Positions 20,226 to 60,796 of a DNA stretch of 64,000 nucleotides are shown here, one piece after another. Both the position numbers and the translations under genes were made by a program. Each line of letters begins with the position of its first letter. Position 1 is the first letter of the stretch. Origin of the DNA: a virus (Duplodnaviria > Caudoviricetes). The stretch spans positions 60,781 through 124,780 of IMG/VR virus record IMGVR_UViG_3300006851_000007; one strand, 5' to 3'. The notes under the pieces were generated by a model, which saw only the letters and a list, made by a program, of their open reading frames with translations, searched no databases and had not been told where the DNA came from.

Positions 20226-20645
20226 ATGAAGAAGTTGTTCGATAAGTGGGGTGTTCGGCACTTTAGCCCGGAGGAGGTCACTCTGCACAGACAATGGGGT
20301 AAGCACGTGCTTCCGCCAGAAAGTAAAAAAAATAACATACATAAAACCATTCTTCTCGCCGATACCATAAGAGAGGTTTGGGGTGACCCAGTCAGGTGTA
20401 ACAGTGGATACAGGTCTCCTGAGTATAACAAGCTCGTGGGAGGGTCTGAAAAGAGTGAGCATGTTGAATTTAGAGCTATGGATTTATCACCCATAAACGG
20501 AGACATCAAGGGATTCTCTGAGGTTGTCAGAGCTGTAGTGGAGGGCGCTCGAACTGCCGGGTGGAATGTCGGTGTGGGGTTTTACAGTACGTTCTGCCAC
20601 ATTGATGTTGATGCGGAGGGTAAAAAAAAGAACAGGAGCTGGTAA
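20226..20645 (+). CDS. peptidase M15 (Zn D-Ala-D-Ala peptidase family), endolysin-like
   Basis: SGYRSPEYNKLVGG..SEH..AMDL..FCHID zinc-peptidase motifs. Confidence 0.9.
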   Translation: MKKLFDKWGVRHFSPEEVTLHRQWGKHVLPPESKKNNIHKTILLADTIREVWGDPVRCNSGYRSPEYNKLVGGSEKSEHVEFRAMDLSPINGDIKGFSEVVRAVVEGARTAGWNVGVGFYSTFCHIDVDAEGKKKNRSW

Positions 20646-20663: not shown

Positions 20664-21836
20664 TTAGCCAGCCCTCTCGTATAATTCTTCCGACGGGTGA
20701 TGGTATGCATCGGAAGCATTGTACGACTTGAGGTACTGGTCAAGACTTAGCATGACCATGGGCATGTTAAGCTCCCTTATAAAGTTCGGCACCGCCGAAT
20801 TGCCCCAACAGGGGTTGCCCCCAATCCCTATATGGGGGTGTACGGCTGGAACTGTTTCGCCGTCCTCTCCCATGCTCGTGAATGATGTCTCAATATCCAT
20901 ACCAACAGAGTTGGTTCCCACAATAACGTTGAATGTGCACGGCTTTATCAGCCACCCCCCCTCATCATCCTCTATAACCCTCTCTGGAATATCAAATCTC
21001 AGACGAAGGACTGAGGAGTACTGATCTCTTCGTCGATAAAGAGCCCCTGTCAGTGTTATATCTTCCCACCTCAGATCATCTTTTGTTACCTTATAGTCAT
21101 CTAAGATTAATTGTCGGGAGAGTAGAGTCTCCCTGTTTCTATATAATGACCCTAATCTGCCCCTTATCACATCTGCATAGTATGAAGCACCGCTTTGTGC
21201 GACAGGAACACTTAATCTCATGTTCAAGTCATACGTTACGTGTGAAAGAGTTATGGATGGTATTCTGTTGAACCCCAGGTTAGACAGGGTGTCTACAATC
21301 TCTTGTAACTCCTCCTCCATATTCAAAGCAGTGGTGAGCAGCGATGATGAGGTTCTTAAATCCTCAATCCTATTGTCGATTGACCGCATTTCATCTCTTA
21401 CCGACCTGCCGAACAGCTCATTCGCATCTCCTGCGAATGCCATTATTTGATTAATAATGAATTGGTCTGGGTCCTCGACAAGGTTTGGAAACATTTCCTC
21501 CAAACGGTCTTCAACCCATGTCTTGATGGTTGGCCTGTAATTATTGACGAGCTCCTCATCGTCAATTTTGGCCAGAATGAAGAATGACCGATTGGCGGTC
21601 GTGCATGCCGGTATACCATCAATGATTAACACCGGCCCACCCTCAAGATCCCTCTTCATTGCTTTGGTGAAATGCCTGTCACCGTTTAGGAAAAGCGGGA
21701 CACATACCATAACATCGGGAGTGATCCCCAATGATGTTACACCATCGCTGATAAACCTCGAGCTCCACCTCTCAAACCTCCTACGTACAGGGGATGTGTA
21801 CGCTTGCAATTCTTCCATAATAGCTGTTTCAAGCAT
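20664..21836 (-). CDS. prokaryotic E2 (UBC)-like protein with N-terminal coiled coil
   Basis: C-terminal VHPHIGIGGNPCWGN (HPN/HPH + candidate catalytic Cys) then helices ending SYNASDAY; coupled to the E1 gene. Confidence 0.7.
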   Translation of the reverse strand: MLETAIMEELQAYTSPVRRRFERWSSRFISDGVTSLGITPDVMVCVPLFLNGDRHFTKAMKRDLEGGPVLIIDGIPACTTANRSFFILAKIDDEELVNNYRPTIKTWVEDRLEEMFPNLVEDPDQFIINQIMAFAGDANELFGRSVRDEMRSIDNRIEDLRTSSSLLTTALNMEEELQEIVDTLSNLGFNRIPSITLSHVTYDLNMRLSVPVAQSGASYYADVIRGRLGSLYRNRETLLSRQLILDDYKVTKDDLRWEDITLTGALYRRRDQYSSVLRLRFDIPERVIEDDEGGWLIKPCTFNVIVGTNSVGMDIETSFTSMGEDGETVPAVHPHIGIGGNPCWGNSAVPNFIRELNMPMVMLSLDQYLKSYNASDAYHHPSEELYERAG

Positions 21837-22486
21837 TAGCCCTCCATACGAATATGGTCATTCGTTTTCGTGTCCATGATTGTGCAAAAGTCGTTCTTCT
21901 GCCCGTTCACATAATTAACAACCCTGGTCGTAATCATGCTGCCGATGGTCATGGCGGTGGACATGGTTGTCCTGGCTGTACACGGAAGGTTTGCGGTCTC
22001 CCCTTCCAGTGACTCTTTGTACGCAGATACCGCCCCTCGATCGGTCATGTCCACACAGTAGAGCATCATGGTTGTCAATCCCATTCGACCATCGATAAGA
22101 AGATCTACATTTGCATCATACTCAATAGCATTGAAGATCTCTCTTCTGGCCTCTAGGGAGTCAACCCCCACGATGACAACCCTTCTGGCCTCCTTACCCC
22201 TCTCAAACTTCTCTCTAGCGACCTCGATCTGCCCTTCTCCAAAATACGACAGAACATCATTGATGGAATCAACCTTGTGTTTGTTCTTGTGCCTATCCCC
22301 AAAGCTCTGATTTGACAGGTTGTGTTCCTCAACCACATCGTGATCATAAGCTTTGATATTCTTGAATCCTGTCTTAGATAGAGCAAGTATTGTCCAAGAG
22401 CCAATACCTCCAGCCCCAATGACCGTGATGGGTAATCTTTTTGCTTGATCCGTGGGGATGTAGTCCTGTTGTCTAAGATATCTCAT
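21836..22486 (-). CDS. ThiF/MoeB/E1-family Ubl-activating adenylyltransferase
   Basis: YLRQ, VIGAGGIGS, YDHDVVEEHNLSNQ, KVD, VGVDS..R, DGRMG; candidate thiol in NLPCT. Confidence 0.92.
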   Translation of the reverse strand: MRYLRQQDYIPTDQAKRLPITVIGAGGIGSWTILALSKTGFKNIKAYDHDVVEEHNLSNQSFGDRHKNKHKVDSINDVLSYFGEGQIEVAREKFERGKEARRVVIVGVDSLEARREIFNAIEYDANVDLLIDGRMGLTTMMLYCVDMTDRGAVSAYKESLEGETANLPCTARTTMSTAMTIGSMITTRVVNYVNGQKNDFCTIMDTKTNDHIRMEG

Positions 22487-22499
22487 TAGTTACTCCTTA

Positions 22500-23609
22500 T
22501 TATTCATAGATCCATGAATTAGACATGTAGAAATCATCAGAAAGATAGGCGTCCCAATAATAATGCGGAGGCTCCTCGTTGGCCGTCTCGATGTCTGCCA
22601 GGTCTACATCCACAAGAGTGCACGCATCCATAACCAGCTCCCACCTCCGCCTGTTTCGGACTGTTATGTCAAACTTTGACAGGCCTACACCCTCCAAGCA
22701 CACATCTTCCTGGTAACCCCCTTCGGCCCAGGATGCCATATCTTTAATAAACTCAATCCTTTTGCTGAGGTTTCCATTTGAAGTCCCCCCCTCATCCTCA
22801 ATGTCTTTCACTATTGAGGCGACTATATCCTCCTGGATCGATATACTTTCATCAAACTCCGTCTCAATTTCAGCAGACATGATCCAGTCAAAATCCTGGA
22901 GAGTGACTTCTTTTTTTTTAGAAGACGATCTCTTGTTCCTCCTGTTCCTCCTGGAGTGCAACCTCCCGTGCTTTCCTGCGGTCACTTTTCTCACCGCAGG
23001 CTTCTTCACGACCACCTTCTTTTTGTACTCGGCCTCACAGTGGCCTAGGGTATCAAACGCAATATCCAGCATCCTGATGACCTCTTTCTTCACCTCATCT
23101 CTCGGCAAGTCGTTAAACTTTTTGATGAGATCAATCACAGAGGTGATGCTTGTCAGCCCGTCAGGAACAATCTCAATTTCTATATTGTCCTGCTTGAGCT
23201 GATAGGGGGTGGAAAATGAGTCCACCCTCGTCCTGACTTCACCCTTTTTGTTGAACACGGACGAGACAAGGTAAGGATTCCCCCGGATGGTACGGATAGC
23301 CTCCTCGTCGGTAGCGGACCAGAACACATCCATATCAACATGTGAGTGCCACCACAGCCTCAGCTCTCCCAGCTCCTCCTCCCTGTCTGATAGCTCATCC
23401 ATCAAATGAGCAGTCGCAAGGGCATCAATTTCTGTGGTTACAGAGGTCACCTCCTGTTCAAGGAGGAAAGCGTCAGTTACCACGAAATGGTCGTCAACAA
23501 TCTTGACCGTTCCGTAGCCGCTTATTTCCTTGGGGCATAGTTGTACCCATTGTTGAATCTTCGAGTACGCTCTATCTGTATATCTGACAGGCTTCATTAT
23601 TACTCCCAC
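22500..23609 (-). CDS. JAB/MPN+ metallo-isopeptidase with C-terminal extension
   Basis: KEISGYG (catalytic E) and WWHSHVDMDVFWSATD = HxH-x7-SxxD. Confidence 0.9.
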   Translation of the reverse strand: MGVIMKPVRYTDRAYSKIQQWVQLCPKEISGYGTVKIVDDHFVVTDAFLLEQEVTSVTTEIDALATAHLMDELSDREEELGELRLWWHSHVDMDVFWSATDEEAIRTIRGNPYLVSSVFNKKGEVRTRVDSFSTPYQLKQDNIEIEIVPDGLTSITSVIDLIKKFNDLPRDEVKKEVIRMLDIAFDTLGHCEAEYKKKVVVKKPAVRKVTAGKHGRLHSRRNRRNKRSSSKKKEVTLQDFDWIMSAEIETEFDESISIQEDIVASIVKDIEDEGGTSNGNLSKRIEFIKDMASWAEGGYQEDVCLEGVGLSKFDITVRNRRRWELVMDACTLVDVDLADIETANEEPPHYYWDAYLSDDFYMSNSWIYE

Positions 23610-24505
23610 TCAACCTGGTTCATTGACTCTGCTACTTCCAAATTTGTGTGGTAACTATCGTCCTCATTATATGAAGATGTTACCTGACTCAGGATAAACC
23701 CAATCCCCATAATATCGAACCTGGTGACACATTCATTAAAGGCCCCACGCATATTCCCCAGGCACATTTCGGAATACCCAACCTCTGGGTGGTAGGTCGA
23801 TGCGTGAGGATGAAATGCACACGATACTGCTGGACTCATCCCCTCTAACACCGGCGAGGCTGTCAGGTACCACACACCATCGGCGTTCAGCCCGACAGCA
23901 TACTTAATGCTGTACTCATCACCCTCGTACTCTGGTGGGCGGTATCGAACCACAAACTCCATTTCCGAACCGCGCATATTAAAATCCAGAATCGCACCAC
24001 TATCGATAAGTTGTGCGACACCTCTAAACATCCCTATAAAATCATCAGGAGCGACAAACTCACTCAAGTTTCTCACTCTTCTCTCTGCTTCGACCTTATA
24101 ATCCTCAGTACGAAGGATAAGCCTCCTGAGGTCCCCTGCATTGAGGGCGATTAGAGTCTCATAGATACTATCCACACTCGATGACCCCTCACCGCCCGTG
24201 GGTGAGTCCTCTGTGCTGTCCATTAGGGTGTCTAGAATATCTTTGATTTTTGCGTAGAATGCTGGATGGGCATTATCCTCGTGATCCACATTAGCCAGCA
24301 TTATCGTTTTCTCTTCACGTATATAGAGAACCCCCTCGTCATCAGTGAACCGGTCATCGACGTTGGTAGGTCCCTCTACAGCCACCAACACCTCCCACTG
24401 ATCCGTAGAAGGGTCGCTCGGAAAGTAGTTGGTTCTTAAAATCCTGCCACCTACAGGCTCCATGCGGGAGAGTAGGGCATCCTCGAGTCCTGGTACAATA
24501 AACAT
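23600..24505 (-). CDS. prokaryotic E2 (UBC)-like protein, paralog of 20664..21836
   Basis: AFHPHASTYHPEVGYSEMCLGN..SYNEDDSY; lies between Ubl and JAB genes. Confidence 0.65.
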   Translation of the reverse strand: MFIVPGLEDALLSRMEPVGGRILRTNYFPSDPSTDQWEVLVAVEGPTNVDDRFTDDEGVLYIREEKTIMLANVDHEDNAHPAFYAKIKDILDTLMDSTEDSPTGGEGSSSVDSIYETLIALNAGDLRRLILRTEDYKVEAERRVRNLSEFVAPDDFIGMFRGVAQLIDSGAILDFNMRGSEMEFVVRYRPPEYEGDEYSIKYAVGLNADGVWYLTASPVLEGMSPAVSCAFHPHASTYHPEVGYSEMCLGNMRGAFNECVTRFDIMGIGFILSQVTSSYNEDDSYHTNLEVAESMNQVEWE

Positions 24506-24516
24506 TCTAATCCTTT

Positions 24517-24541
24517 AAAAAAAACGGGCGCCGAAGCGCCC
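24517..24541 (-). terminator. intrinsic terminator/attenuator after Ubl gene
   Basis: minus strand GGGCGC-UUCG-GCGCCC-G-U8. Confidence 0.85.
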
Positions 24542-24569: not shown

Positions 24570-24986
24570 TTACTGGCCACCCTCGACGTTCGGAGCCAGA
24601 ATGATGTTATCCCCGTTTTGTAGAACCTCACCTAGGGAGGCCTCCCTACCGTTTAGAAAAACCCGAGACCCGTCCGGCTCGTGTCGGCCGAGGAGGTCCC
24701 CGAGGATCTCACCTCTTTGGAATACTACTTTCTCTTGCCCCCTCCCCAGGCGGGACAGGGTGGCCGTAAGCTCTTCTGATCCACCCTTCACGTTTGACAC
24801 GATCGTGATCGTGTCTCCGTGTGCCACCTGAGCATCAAGGCTTACTTGCGCCCTCTCCCTGGTGACGATGCACCCTTCAGCTGAGAATCCGGACGCTCGG
24901 ACTGCGTCCAGGACCGTGCTTCCCTCGGGGAGATTAACTGTGGTCGAGCCCTGTCCAATCTTTCTTACATCAAGCTTCATATACAT
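24570..24986 (-). CDS. tandem di-ubiquitin-like (beta-grasp, MoaD/ThiS-like) protein precursor
   Basis: two ~68-aa domains ending GDTITIVSNVKGG and GDNIILAPNVEGG-Q; GGAGG RBS (start may be ATG 24980). Confidence 0.9.
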   Translation of the reverse strand: MYMKLDVRKIGQGSTTVNLPEGSTVLDAVRASGFSAEGCIVTRERAQVSLDAQVAHGDTITIVSNVKGGSEELTATLSRLGRGQEKVVFQRGEILGDLLGRHEPDGSRVFLNGREASLGEVLQNGDNIILAPNVEGGQ

Positions 24987-25035
24987 CCTCCATATGGATA
25001 AAATACGAGCAACACCCTATGTGCCGCTCGTGAAT

Positions 25036-25065
25036 ATTATACCGTTATTTTTGATTAAATTTAGC
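25036..25065 (-). promoter_or_regulatory. GCTAAA-N18-TATAAT promoter upstream of the Ubl operon
   Basis: matches the motif recurring at about 10 sites in the window. Confidence 0.7.
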
Positions 25066-25719
25066 CTTCCCGGTGCCGTGCACCCTAAAGGCTACTACCG
25101 AGCTGCGATTCTTTCTAAAGCACAGCATGCATTCAGAGCATGAGATACCATGCGTCTGGTTAGGACAAACAACAAGCCTGGCATTTTTGCCATTAATATT
25201 AATCACGCCAGATTCAAAGTCTTCGTCGACCACGGTCGTGGCAGGCCACCCTGAGTTGACAGCATTTATGACCTCTTCTTTTGAATCGCACGAAGCATTC
25301 ACGCAGAGGGATTTTTCGGCATTCATCTTTTTAGAATCCAGCCTCTCCCAGGCGTGGGTGTATGTCCACCCTTTAAGGTCTGGTCTTTCTGAGTGTGCCT
25401 TTAGTACTGAGTCTATATAGTTAGTATCAATCATATCTCCAGGCTTCATAAAGTCGCCAGAAACATGATGTCTGAGCTTCTTACCTTCAGGCAAATTAGT
25501 AACATAGTCGTAAATAATGTCAGCATCACTCCTGCTATATTCTGACACTTTTGCGTGCATATTCACAAACGAGTATAAGGCGTAACAGCTCCTATTTTGC
25601 AGGTGTTCACAGGATTGTGGACACGTGGGTCCAACCTCTCTGTATGTCGCTCTCACACCCCTACCGAGCTTGCGGTTGCCCGAATCCCTCTCAAGACATT
25701 TAATCATCTCTTCCTCCAA
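25045..25719 (-). CDS. Gp88-like / radical-SAM-related Cys-rich protein
   Basis: TCPQSC..SCYA, RHHVSGDF, WTYTH, CPNQ..CSECMLC, AFRVHG. Confidence 0.7.
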   Translation of the reverse strand: MEEEMIKCLERDSGNRKLGRGVRATYREVGPTCPQSCEHLQNRSCYALYSFVNMHAKVSEYSRSDADIIYDYVTNLPEGKKLRHHVSGDFMKPGDMIDTNYIDSVLKAHSERPDLKGWTYTHAWERLDSKKMNAEKSLCVNASCDSKEEVINAVNSGWPATTVVDEDFESGVININGKNARLVVCPNQTHGISCSECMLCFRKNRSSVVAFRVHGTGKAKFNQK

Positions 25720-28356: not shown

Positions 28357-28430
28357 TCGGAATGGCAGGACTCGAACCTGCGACCTGCGGATTAGGAATC
28401 CGCCGCTCTATCCTGCTGAGCTACATCCCG
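28357..28430 (-). tRNA. tRNA-Arg (anticodon CCT, reads AGG)
   Basis: acceptor CGGGAUG/CAUUCCG; anticodon arm GCGGA-UU CCU AA-UCCGC; GGUUCGAGUCC T-arm; no encoded CCA. Confidence 0.93.
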
Positions 28431-28505
28431 TGGTGGACCTACCCGGACTCGAACCGAGACATGACCTGTTATGAGCAGGTGGCTCTACCATTGAGCTATA
28501 GGTCC
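28431..28505 (-). tRNA. tRNA with CAT anticodon, probably Ile2 (lysidine, reads ATA)
   Basis: acceptor GGACCUA/UAGGUCC + ACCA; anticodon loop CU CAU AA; acceptor stem resembles bacterial tRNA-Ile2 more than fMet/eMet. Confidence 0.85.
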
Positions 28506-28574
28506 AGATAGAGGAGGTTTTGGTGGCCGCGCCAACAGTCACTGTCTGCCTCCTCTCTCACCCTTCAGGGTGAA

Positions 28575-28648
<74 letters not shown>

Positions 28649-28671
28649 ATAGAGAAGTTTTCACTTCTCCT

Positions 28672-36185: not shown

Positions 36186-37964
36186 ATGATCAATCAACTT
36201 GAAGAATACCTCAGACCTGCAAATAGAAGGTTCTCGGTAAAAGACATTGTTCATCATAAGAACAGAAATTGGAGCGGGGAGAGATATGTAATACCACAAA
36301 GAGATTTGTGGGAAAACATGAGATTCACCATAGACTTCATAGAATCTTATATTGTCCCCCCTATAGAGAGCAGGATAAGACAGCAGGCTGTTATATCTGT
36401 ACAGTCTGGATACCGATCTCCCAGCTATAATAGGCTGGTAAGGGGTTCGCCCAACAGCATGCACGTCAGGTTTGCAGCGCTTGACTTGAAGCCTGTAAAT
36501 TTCAACATGATGCTATTTAGGGAAATTTGCGACGAGGTGTTTTGGGAATACGGCATTCATTATAATATGGGTCTCGGGTTTTATGATACCTTCATTCATA
36601 TTGATGCATCTCAAAACAAGTTGAGGAAGGCGCCATATACCTGGTTTAGAGTAAACAGCCAAAACATCAAGAGGGAAAGGGGCCAGCTAGTCCCTGCGTC
36701 GGGAACGGGCTCCCCTATGTCAATGGAGGGGGGTGATGGGTCAACCATGCCTTCTGACGACTATCTGTTTGATGAGGGTGTACAAAAGAGGCTGCATCTT
36801 GATGTTATGGATATGGGTAGATTCCTTACCCCTGAAGAGTATAGAAAGGGTATAGTTGCACAAATATATTATGTTAGCGATTGGCATTTATCGGCAGCCA
36901 GCAATAGTGAGAACCTTTCTAATAAAGACATGCAGGCGTCAGGGGAGAGTGATCAAAGCCTTATGTCTGTTGACGATGCCATAAGAGACATAAACAGCAC
37001 TCCAGATAGCCCTCCTGCGGGTGAGGTAAACTACGACCGAGACAGGGGAGACCTATCCCTGGATCCGAGAAAAAGATACATAATGTCTCTGGTGGATGCC
37101 GAGTTTTACAGGAGGAGGTTGGGATCAAGGCAGGTCCCTGCTGTCACAGGCCCTTTTAATCCATATCCTGTCGCAGGATTTCCCGCTTTAGTTATGACTC
37201 CCGGCAGACCAATCATAGGTATGGCGGAGTCTGTGTCCCACCATATAGACGTGGCAAGTGGCAGTGGAACTACATCGGTATCTATAAGTCAACCAAGATA
37301 TTGGGATGAGGGCGACGTATGGCATTGGGCTGGGGGTTGGAGTATGGATGACTGGTCTAATACGCAGTCTCCGAAATCTAACTACAGACATCTATACCAG
37401 AGGTTCCCTCTCTGGCAAAACAGGCACACTGTCGCAACCAACAATTACGACTTCTCTACAAGAAGTGTAACCAGGTCCACCCCTCTGGATAATTTTTATA
37501 AATTTATACTTGGTTGTAGCGCCATACCTTACGTCTCCAACAACAAGGACAAAGTTTCCAATACCGAGGTTTTAGAAGCAGCTATACGAGATAGGCGCCC
37601 TGGAAATTTCGAGGTCAATCCCGAAACTTTGGAGATCAAGGATTACAACGAGTATATTGCATCCCTTGATGATCAGAATAAGTTCAGACCCGGGACTTTA
37701 GCGTTTGAACTTTTTGGACATATGGAACCATACGACTCAAATGAGTCCACCGCATCCGTCCAGTCTCAAGTGGAGTATACTGAGAGATACGGAGTGACAG
37801 AAAGAGAGCTTCTGGTTGATTTTCTAGAAAACAAATACGACGAGCACAAAGGGGTTGTTGTCCTAAAGGGAAGAACATTTGGAGAAAAGGGGAACAACCT
37901 ACAAAGAAGCATCGTAGATTATATAAAAGATATAGAAAGGAGGTCACTAAGTGCGCCAAAGTGA
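36186..37964 (+). CDS. peptidase M15 domain fused to hub-like C-terminal region
   Basis: SGYRSPSYNRLVRG..SMH..ALDL..FIHID followed by GPFNPYPVAGFPALV..SVSHHID. Confidence 0.7.
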   Translation: MINQLEEYLRPANRRFSVKDIVHHKNRNWSGERYVIPQRDLWENMRFTIDFIESYIVPPIESRIRQQAVISVQSGYRSPSYNRLVRGSPNSMHVRFAALDLKPVNFNMMLFREICDEVFWEYGIHYNMGLGFYDTFIHIDASQNKLRKAPYTWFRVNSQNIKRERGQLVPASGTGSPMSMEGGDGSTMPSDDYLFDEGVQKRLHLDVMDMGRFLTPEEYRKGIVAQIYYVSDWHLSAASNSENLSNKDMQASGESDQSLMSVDDAIRDINSTPDSPPAGEVNYDRDRGDLSLDPRKRYIMSLVDAEFYRRRLGSRQVPAVTGPFNPYPVAGFPALVMTPGRPIIGMAESVSHHIDVASGSGTTSVSISQPRYWDEGDVWHWAGGWSMDDWSNTQSPKSNYRHLYQRFPLWQNRHTVATNNYDFSTRSVTRSTPLDNFYKFILGCSAIPYVSNNKDKVSNTEVLEAAIRDRRPGNFEVNPETLEIKDYNEYIASLDDQNKFRPGTLAFELFGHMEPYDSNESTASVQSQVEYTERYGVTERELLVDFLENKYDEHKGVVVLKGRTFGEKGNNLQRSIVDYIKDIERRSLSAPK

Positions 37965-60512: not shown

Positions 60513-60796
60513 ACTCGTCCACATCGAGTCACAACCACATCCATAATGGTGCAATAATGGAAGATATTTTTAATGTCACTTGCCCGAAGTGTGGGTCTAG
60601 TGATGTCCAGTATATTGTTAGAGGGTTCGCTTCATTTGATAGACCCCAAATGGGGAGTATGGGCAATGTTTATACAAAATCTATAAGCGATTTTGAAATT
60701 AGTAGTGAGGCTGACTACCCCTTCTCTTGCCATGAATGTATGGAGAGGTTCACAAAGGAAGATATACTTAAAACTGGAGAGTATGATGGGGTTTAA
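60509..60796 (+). CDS. zinc-ribbon hypothetical protein
   Basis: CPKCGS...CHEC. Confidence 0.6.
   Translation: MNSSTSSHNHIHNGAIMEDIFNVTCPKCGSSDVQYIVRGFASFDRPQMGSMGNVYTKSISDFEISSEADYPFSCHECMERFTKEDILKTGEYDGV

Follow-up and report, generated by a model that had tools for sequence, protein, structure and literature searches.

Bacterial Bil operons, which act in anti-phage defense, encode a ubiquitin-like protein (Ubl; BilA), an E2 (BilB), a JAB peptidase (BilC) and an E1 (BilD). BilC cuts BilA between Gly97 and Ala98, removing a one-residue cap, and also cleaves a linear Ubl-GFP fusion (PMC10557695); capped BilA cannot be adenylated (PMC10557695, Chambers et al.). Some BilA proteins have two or three beta-grasp domains, and these are described as single modifiers, with internal cleavage not mentioned (PMC10557695, PMC11601603). 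Here we analyze a 64,000-nucleotide stretch of viral DNA (Duplodnaviria; Caudoviricetes), positions 60,781 to 124,780 of IMG/VR record IMGVR_UViG_3300006851_000007, hereafter the window. Its minus strand carries a gene for two head-to-tail Ubls, each ending in Gly-Gly (GG). This di-Ubl gene (24570..24986) is followed by genes for a 301-aa protein, a 369-aa JAB peptidase, a 216-aa E1 and a 390-aa protein, all five co-oriented and placed after a DUF7227/GP88 gene. The compact module consists of a Ubl gene of variable unit number, an E2-like protein with the signature HPH..C.G, the JAB peptidase and the 216-aa E1. Judged by its genes, the locus is a minimal Ubl system, borne by phages and mobile elements, with a tag gene of polyubiquitin architecture; the related Bil and Bub systems are already known. 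Sequence, structural modeling and analogy lead us to favor, with confidence a little above even, the view that the product is a polyubiquitin-style precursor cut by the operon's JAB after both GG tails.

The module shares with Bil its four functions, its gene order and the one-residue cap after the reactive Gly. It differs in that the phage E1 is just 216 aa long, and therefore has no room for a separate or inserted CYS domain, in that the phage E2-like domain matches no E2 profile, and in that the system is carried by phages and mobile elements, not by defense islands. Pfam, NCBIfam and PADLOC gave no match linking the Ubl, E2-like or JAB protein to Bil, and the PADLOC set used may not include Bil models.

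Tandem bacterial Ubls were likened to poly-ubiquitin in 2006 (Iyer, Burroughs and Aravind; PMC1779556). In operons of type 6e (polyUbl, or Bub; PMC1779556, PMC11601603), two or three tandem Ubls lie near E1, JAB and E2-like genes, as in the phage module. Bub operons have a JAB-E1 fusion, an E2-like protein that is inactive, RWD-like or fused to a Ubl, and a DUF6527 protease. In contrast, the phage module has its JAB and E1 in separate genes, an invariant Cys in the E2-like protein and a GG tail of its own on each unit, and no neighbor matched DUF6527 in a Pfam scan; on these grounds we rejected membership in this group. Operons of type 6d (PRTRC; TIGR03735-03741) likewise combine a small Ubl ending in Gly with JAB, E1-like and E2-like proteins on mobile elements, and have a JAB-N domain and an E2-like protein that lacks the HPN His and has a His after the Cys. 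Membership in 6d was also rejected. The phage E1 matched PRTRC_ThiF (TIGR03736) weakly (E 1.6e-9; 37.4 bits against a cut-off of 144.75), its JAB has no JAB-N domain (the catalytic Glu is already residue 28), and its E2-like proteins have HPH before the Cys, with only C and G invariant after HPH and no invariant His after the Cys, the opposite of 6d. Archaeal SAMP/UbaA/JAMM1 and Thermus TtuB resemble the phage system in pairing a minimal E1 with a JAMM peptidase acting on GG tails, and differ in having single-unit modifiers and no E2-like protein.

Polyubiquitin genes have been regarded as a distinguishing mark of eukaryotes and of some eukaryotic viruses. Like eukaryotic polyubiquitin (UBB/UBC), the phage family has beta-grasp units arranged head to tail with no spacer, a GG on every unit, a blocked last GG and variable copy number, and some of its members have near-identical repeats. 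The polyubiquitin class is defined by (near-)identical units of ubiquitin proper, whereas the units here are ThiS/SAMP-like and 24% identical to each other, so that two different tags would result. Processing would presumably fall to a JAMM metallopeptidase from the same operon, the genome is that of a bacteriophage, and cleavage is predicted. We found no description of a phage poly-Ubl with GG at each unit in a literature search, which left much subscription literature outside its reach.

The di-Ubl gene and the conservation of its tails

The open reading frame (ORF) at 24570-24986 is open on the minus strand only; there are eight stops in the plus-strand frame. It comprises 138 codons and a stop. 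In the 138-aa translation, NVKGG occupies residues 65-69 and NVEGG residues 133-137, and these are followed by Gln138 and TAA. Reading base by base, the GG codons of the first unit are at 24780-24785 and those of the second at 24576-24581. The cap and stop fill 24570..24575, with CAG at 24573-24575 and TAA at 24570-24572. A ribosome-binding site, GGAGG (24987..24991, minus strand), touches the first ATG of the ORF without a spacer and lies 6 nt ahead of the ATG at 24980. Because this spacing agrees with the database gene call (P0002, 136 aa, beginning MKLDV at ATG 24980) and with the N termini of homologs (MK[IV]xV), the true protein is probably 136 aa long, starting at ATG 24980 and with GG at residues 66-67 and 134-135. 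Residue numbers in this text are those of the 138-aa ORF and thus include the two extra N-terminal residues. A first-pass annotation of this DNA had described two non-identical Ubls, each with a GG end, and a one-residue Gln cap. The minus-strand translation bears this out, including the order NVKGG, NVEGG, Gln; the residue numbers given there are probably two too high, and the strand was not stated.

Both units have a ThiS/SAMP-like fold. Unit 1 (24780..24980, minus strand) is a ThiS/SAMP2-like beta-grasp domain that scored above the Pfam ThiS (PF02597) cut-off over residues 12-69 (33 bits against 22.5) and was matched over residues 1-69 by a hidden Markov model (HMM) of the family's own units. 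Unit 2 (residues 70-137; 24576..24779, minus strand) was picked up by the same unit HMM over 70-137, and weakly by MoaD/SAMP1 models over residues 105-137. SAMP2 models stayed below their cut-offs on the di-Ubl (Pfam, 20.2 against 27; NCBIfam, 17.5 against 70). The closest relatives of the units among solved sequences are SAMP2 (5LDA_B) and PF1061 (1RWS). There was no match in PADLOC, PHROGs or NCBIfam beyond ThiS/MoaD/SAMP, and a word-indexed protein search with the di-Ubl returned only itself.

AlphaFold2, run with a 26-sequence alignment, predicted two beta-beta-alpha-beta-beta units with a mean predicted local distance difference test (pLDDT) of 90.7. Strands (E) and helices (H) were placed at E2-9, E13-20, H25-32, E39-43 and E59-64 in unit 1, and at E73-79, E83-89, H95-102, E108-111 and E127-131 in unit 2. 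Confidence dropped only in the tail blocks, 61-70 and 131-138 (pLDDT 70 in each). The predicted template modeling (pTM) score was 0.51, and therefore the model does not fix how one domain is oriented relative to the other. The low tail pLDDT and this pTM are consistent with beads on a string. There is no spacer between the units; G69 is followed by just three residues (S-E-E) before unit 2 enters its first strand.

A HMMER search of 1.84 billion representatives returned 48 relatives of the di-Ubl (E ≤ 0.001). These, together with a syntenic operon in a relative from another sample (L002), rule out a chance or non-coding artefact. We combined the HMMER matches with the Ubl genes found beside E1 in the collected loci to obtain 65 non-redundant relatives, which have one unit (30 proteins), two (27), three (six) or four (two). 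All 45 internal unit boundaries end in G-[G/N/A], exactly at the C terminus of the unit HMM. The caps are 0-4 residues long in 62 of the 65: absent in seven, 1 aa in 34, 2 aa in 15 and 3-4 aa in six; the other three extend at least 20 aa. The residue following the Gly (P1') is mostly A, S or G at internal sites, and N, R, K, Q or others at cap sites. G68 and G136 are the sole invariant columns in an alignment of 26 di-Ubls.

Because recent duplicates retain GG trivially, we examined separately the di-Ubls, 12 in all, with ≤36% identity between their units. In this diverged subset G68 is present in 12 of 12 and G69 in 11 of 12, the same as for G136 and G137, and V66 and V134 are likewise conserved. 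In the clade of this phage, unit 1 shares 49-60% identity with unit 1 of the relatives and just 22-34% with its own unit 2. This argues that the duplication is old and that the internal GG has been held by selection. In many other proteins of the family the units are 64-93% identical, indicating recent duplications.

Unit copy number is labile between closely related systems. The E1s of a mono-Ubl locus (L003) and a di-Ubl locus (L004) are 80% identical, and a tetra-Ubl (L089) adjoins the same set of E2-like, JAB and E1 genes. One locus, L006, has two separate capped mono-Ubl genes. These genes (L006:3707-3937 and L006:8543-8761) each end in GG plus Arg and are accompanied by two JAB genes, one E1 and one E2-like gene; L006 is an unfused counterpart of a two-tag system. 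In a sister group (P0127, P0130, P0137, P0138, P0146, P0152, P0156, P0158, P0161, P0165 and P0168) there are two to four units, each ending in K-G-N, and in P0154 the units end in K-G-A instead. At the one K-G-N locus that was looked up (L090), the poly-Ubl gene adjoins the mini-E1. In this group either a single Gly would serve as the reactive end, with Asn as the first residue of the cap or linker, or the end chemistry would be different.

The JAB peptidase, E1 and E2-like proteins

The JAB/MPN+ metallopeptidase (369 aa; 22500..23609, minus strand) has its catalytic domain at about residues 1-150, with E28, H88-S-H90, S98 and D101. It scored 17.8 bits with Pfam Prok-JAB, under the cut-off of 25, and matched nothing in PADLOC, PHROGs or NCBIfam. 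Its active site is intact: E28, H88, S89, H90, S98 and D101 are invariant in an alignment of 38 sequences (alignment A3), and the E..HSH-x7-S-xx-D motif is present in all 69 distinct relatives beside E1. The scans for JAB and E2-like neighbors, done with HMMs, covered 88 loci. The protein also has a C-terminal extension of 190 aa (22500-23075, minus strand), in which a stretch of about 40 residues is nearly all Lys, Arg and Ser. Extensions vary widely, with total lengths of 186-455 aa among the relatives listed.

The precursor (alignment A4) was modeled in complex with the JAB domain (alignment A3) and Zn. The interface score (ipSAE) was 0.77, with 0.74-0.78 over three runs, compared with 0.01 for the best control; in calibration, 58 of 80 solved complexes scored at this mark, as did 2 of 110 mismatched pairs. 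The runs had ≥93% of their contacts in common, and the pLDDT of the partners was ≥85. The modeled contacts include JAB residues 28, 86, 88, 90 and 98-101, among others, and Ubl residues 59, 61, 63-73 and 89-91. In the model, the catalytic cleft of the JAB thus holds the unit 1 tail and the G68-G69-S70 junction of a precursor that still includes unit 2.

The minimal E1 (216 aa; 21836..22486, minus strand) is a ThiF-type adenylation domain with the motif GAGGIGS and an invariant Cys169. It scored 62.6 bits with Pfam ThiF (cut-off 28.1), and G24, G26, G27, G29, D132, R134 and C169 are invariant in the family (alignment A1). In PADLOC it matched only the CBASS E1-E2 models, over the Rossmann part.

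The 301-aa protein (23600..24505, minus strand) and the 390-aa protein (20664..21836, minus strand) are alike in their C-terminal domain, which bears the signature HPH..(G).PC.G and is a candidate for a UBC/RWD fold. In the 301-aa protein, HPH is at residues 232-234 and the invariant Cys (C.G) at 248; in the 390-aa paralog the corresponding segment, HPHIGIGGNPCWGN, is at 333-346. An HMM of the domain matched 67 ORFs next to a mini-E1, and in an alignment of the domain (A2) C119 and G121 are invariant and P104 is near-invariant. The AlphaFold2 model of the domain (pLDDT 72.6) consists of an N-terminal helix, antiparallel strands, the HPH motif, the Cys loop and three helices. When it was compared with 48,161 Protein Data Bank (PDB) representatives using VIA-align, ranks 1-10 were all E2 enzymes, with Z scores of 6.1-5.7 (below 8 and hence no proof), root mean square deviations of 4.2-5.0 Å and 107-121 aligned residues; RWD domains and further E2s followed, and Cap2 was at rank 50. 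Foldseek of the same model against the PDB gave nothing at E ≤ 0.001, with UBE2H first appearing at rank 11. Pfam assigned no family, E2 families included, to any of 42 E2-like domains. Neither protein had a match in PADLOC, PHROGs or NCBIfam, and a word-indexed search with the 301-aa protein returned only itself. A weak lead from Atlas to Prok-E2_D (0.80) was not used as evidence. Taken together, there is moderate support from the models for regarding the two proteins as E2-like.

We considered whether there is one E2-like enzyme for each Ubl unit. As a rule for the family this was rejected: L004, L014 and L024-26 have a di-Ubl and one E2-like protein, L011 a mono-Ubl and two, and L089 a tetra-Ubl and two. 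Such a pairing fits this phage clade and may hold within it alone.

In the reading that we favor, the primary product of 136-138 aa would be two ThiS/SAMP-like units head to tail, with tails x-V-[K/E]-G-G and the last Gly blocked by Gln. The JAB/MPN+ enzyme would cut after G69 and after G137, giving two different mature Ubls with exposed Gly carboxylates. Only after cutting would the 216-aa E1 adenylate the Ubls, possibly forming a thioester on Cys169, and it would then hand them to the conserved Cys of the 301- and 390-aa E2-like proteins and so to targets. The same JAB could also undo conjugates.

This scheme develops one put forward in the first-pass annotation, which proposed that the JAB cuts after both GG motifs, releases two Ubls and so acts as the on-switch for conjugation, and that homologs should keep the internal GG and a short C-terminal cap. 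Both features are indeed kept: the internal Gly at all 45 boundaries and in every one of the 26 aligned di-Ubls, and the short cap in most relatives. The combination of cap and JAB as an on-switch is an established mechanism in a related system because of the BilC/BilA experiments (PMC10557695), and the phage JAB site is intact. The cut at the internal GG and the release of two Ubls are the part that we infer, as are E2 function, conjugation and the biological role of the module.

Alternative readings of the internal GG

A further observation in favor of a precursor is that the best match of the di-Ubl profile among the sequences of solved structures was eukaryotic polyubiquitin-C (E 2.7e-16), in alignments that span the LRGG-MQIF junction between ubiquitin repeats. 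Several points weigh against a precursor cut at both tails. The E value of the polyubiquitin-C match is summed over repeats, from eight stretches that are individually weak (i-Evalue 2.8-15). Agreement in the JAB complex may echo solved JAMM-Ubl complexes (5LDA, BilC-BilA), and that model differed from the calibration set in its custom alignments and riding Zn. Conservation of the internal GG is informative only in the diverged subset, and the relatives are a slightly biased sample because the query that gathered them contained GG. Foldseek ranks ISG15 and FAT10 level with linear di-ubiquitin. Finally, uncleaved tandem beta-grasp Ubls are well known, including ISG15, FAT10, Type I BilA and the Ubl2 and Ubl3 proteins of Bil/Bub operons (PMC11601603).

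The last two points lead to the main rival, in which the di-Ubl is a tandem modifier like ISG15 or FAT10. The JAB would then trim only the Gln, the whole di-Ubl would be conjugated, and the internal GG would be a hinge or a leftover of duplication. Multi-beta-grasp Ubls are common in bacterial Bil/Bub operons, where each is regarded as one modifier; Type I BilA is a two-domain protein, and the Bub Ubl3 proteins make Ca-dependent filaments, with cutting not reported (PMC11601603). The fold alone leaves precursor and tandem modifier undecided, because Foldseek ranked both kinds equally: linear di-ubiquitin, Naegleria polyubiquitin, ISG15 and FAT10 were matched about equally by the di-Ubl model. 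However, a hinge would not preserve the full tail, and V66/V134, G68/G136 and G69/G137 are equally conserved in both units, G68 being one of just two invariant columns. Close relatives with the same enzymes have anywhere from one to four units. The complex model seats the internal junction, and not the C terminus, in the JAB cleft. To our knowledge, the N-terminal domains of ISG15 and FAT10 have no GG end, which also counts against a modifier of this type. We consider the tandem modifier unlikely, while regarding it as a serious competitor of the precursor.

A sulfur-carrier role appears improbable. In this case the E1 would thiocarboxylate ThiS/MoaD-type units for synthesis of a thio-cofactor or for tRNA thiolation, the JAB would only remove the cap, and there would be no conjugation. 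The best family matches of the units are ThiS, MoaD, SAMP and TtuB, and the E1 consists of a ThiF-type adenylation domain and nothing more, both as expected for such a carrier. JAMM peptidases are also known to trim capped carriers of the ThiS-like kind, with QbsD uncapping QbsE and Mec+ uncapping CysO. On the other side, there was no rhodanese, cysteine desulfurase or biosynthetic gene in the operons of eight relatives inspected, and most of these operons encode a UBC/RWD-like protein with an invariant Cys after HPH. The genes are found in phages and integrative elements, and tandem carriers of two to four units make no sense for sulfur transfer.

About equally improbable is partial or regulated processing, with efficient uncapping, a slow or signal-dependent internal cut and use of both di-Ubl and mono-Ubl tags, which fits all the conservation data and the difference in P1' residues between internal and cap sites and is a purely hypothetical hybrid of the two main readings.

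Distribution of the module, its neighborhood and its significance

A search of IMG/VR for related loci with the single E1 sequence found none; matches came only with an E1 alignment, which identified at least 328 viral contigs encoding a relative of this E1. There were 118 E1 relatives of similarly small size. A search of GenBank phages with the operon using blastn gave no match. The syntenic relative L002 has the same gene order, including the DUF7227 and M15 peptidase genes, and an E1 that is 48% identical. Integrative elements that encode ArdA and an integrase (L003 and L004) also carry the module, as does a contig (L007) whose E1 has its NCBI name from a Candidatus Uhrbacteria genome. L007 looks cellular and has three E2-like paralogs, one of which (313 aa) lacks the Cys; its Ubl gene is placed after E1 and ends in Q-A-G-S, not GG. 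In a further clade (L030-L088; JAB motif HSHH.MGAFFSGTD), E2-like, JAB and E1 genes are present and the E2-like domain is N-terminal. At many of the viral loci in this clade the unit HMM found no Ubl gene within the collected flanks; the tag may be diverged, very short or located outside them.

The virus record from which the window was taken, that of a large uncultured phage, is 124,780 bp long and estimated to be 75% complete, and few of its other large ORFs match Pfam or PHROG families. Directly upstream of the di-Ubl gene is the DUF7227/GP88-family gene (25045..25719, minus strand; Pfam DUF7227, E 7.6e-37), which is kept in all three members of the phage clade (this phage; L002:3074-3727; L091:118-777) and may belong to the module or be one of its targets. 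Between the di-Ubl stop and the 301-aa gene, direct reading revealed a GC hairpin, gggcgc-TTCG-gcgccc, followed by a run of nine T (24517..24541, minus strand). It looks like an intrinsic terminator and could raise the tag transcript above the enzyme transcripts. Beside the operon, on the plus strand, is a gene for a 139-aa Peptidase_M15_3 protein (20226-20645) that is conserved in L002; a second Peptidase_M15_3 domain forms the N terminus of a 592-aa protein (36186-37964, plus strand). Three phage tRNA genes, Arg(CCT), Met/Ile2-type (CAT) and Arg(TCT), are located at 28357-28649 on the minus strand.

It is possible, and we propose it only tentatively, that phages and mobile elements hold genuine polyubiquitin-type genes, in which JAB-processed precursors of one to four units feed a minimal cascade of E1 and E2-like proteins; in this phage there would be two tags, possibly one for each E2-like paralog. 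If so, the polyprotein route to ubiquitin-like tags would not be a eukaryotic invention, and a family that keeps a reactive tail on every unit would place the precursor strategy in the prokaryotic virosphere. The multi-domain Ubls of the Bil and Bub systems studied so far have been described as single, uncleaved modifiers, in contrast to what is proposed for the phage family. The module is also a small and tractable set (a 136-aa substrate, a 369-aa peptidase and a 216-aa E1) for learning how JAMM enzymes read linear Ubl junctions. Known bacterial systems use Ubl tagging against phages, and one may ask what phages, in turn, mark with Ubls of their own. If this broader proposal is correct, the two Ubls of this virus would provide two-channel tagging for virion assembly, host takeover or counter-defense.

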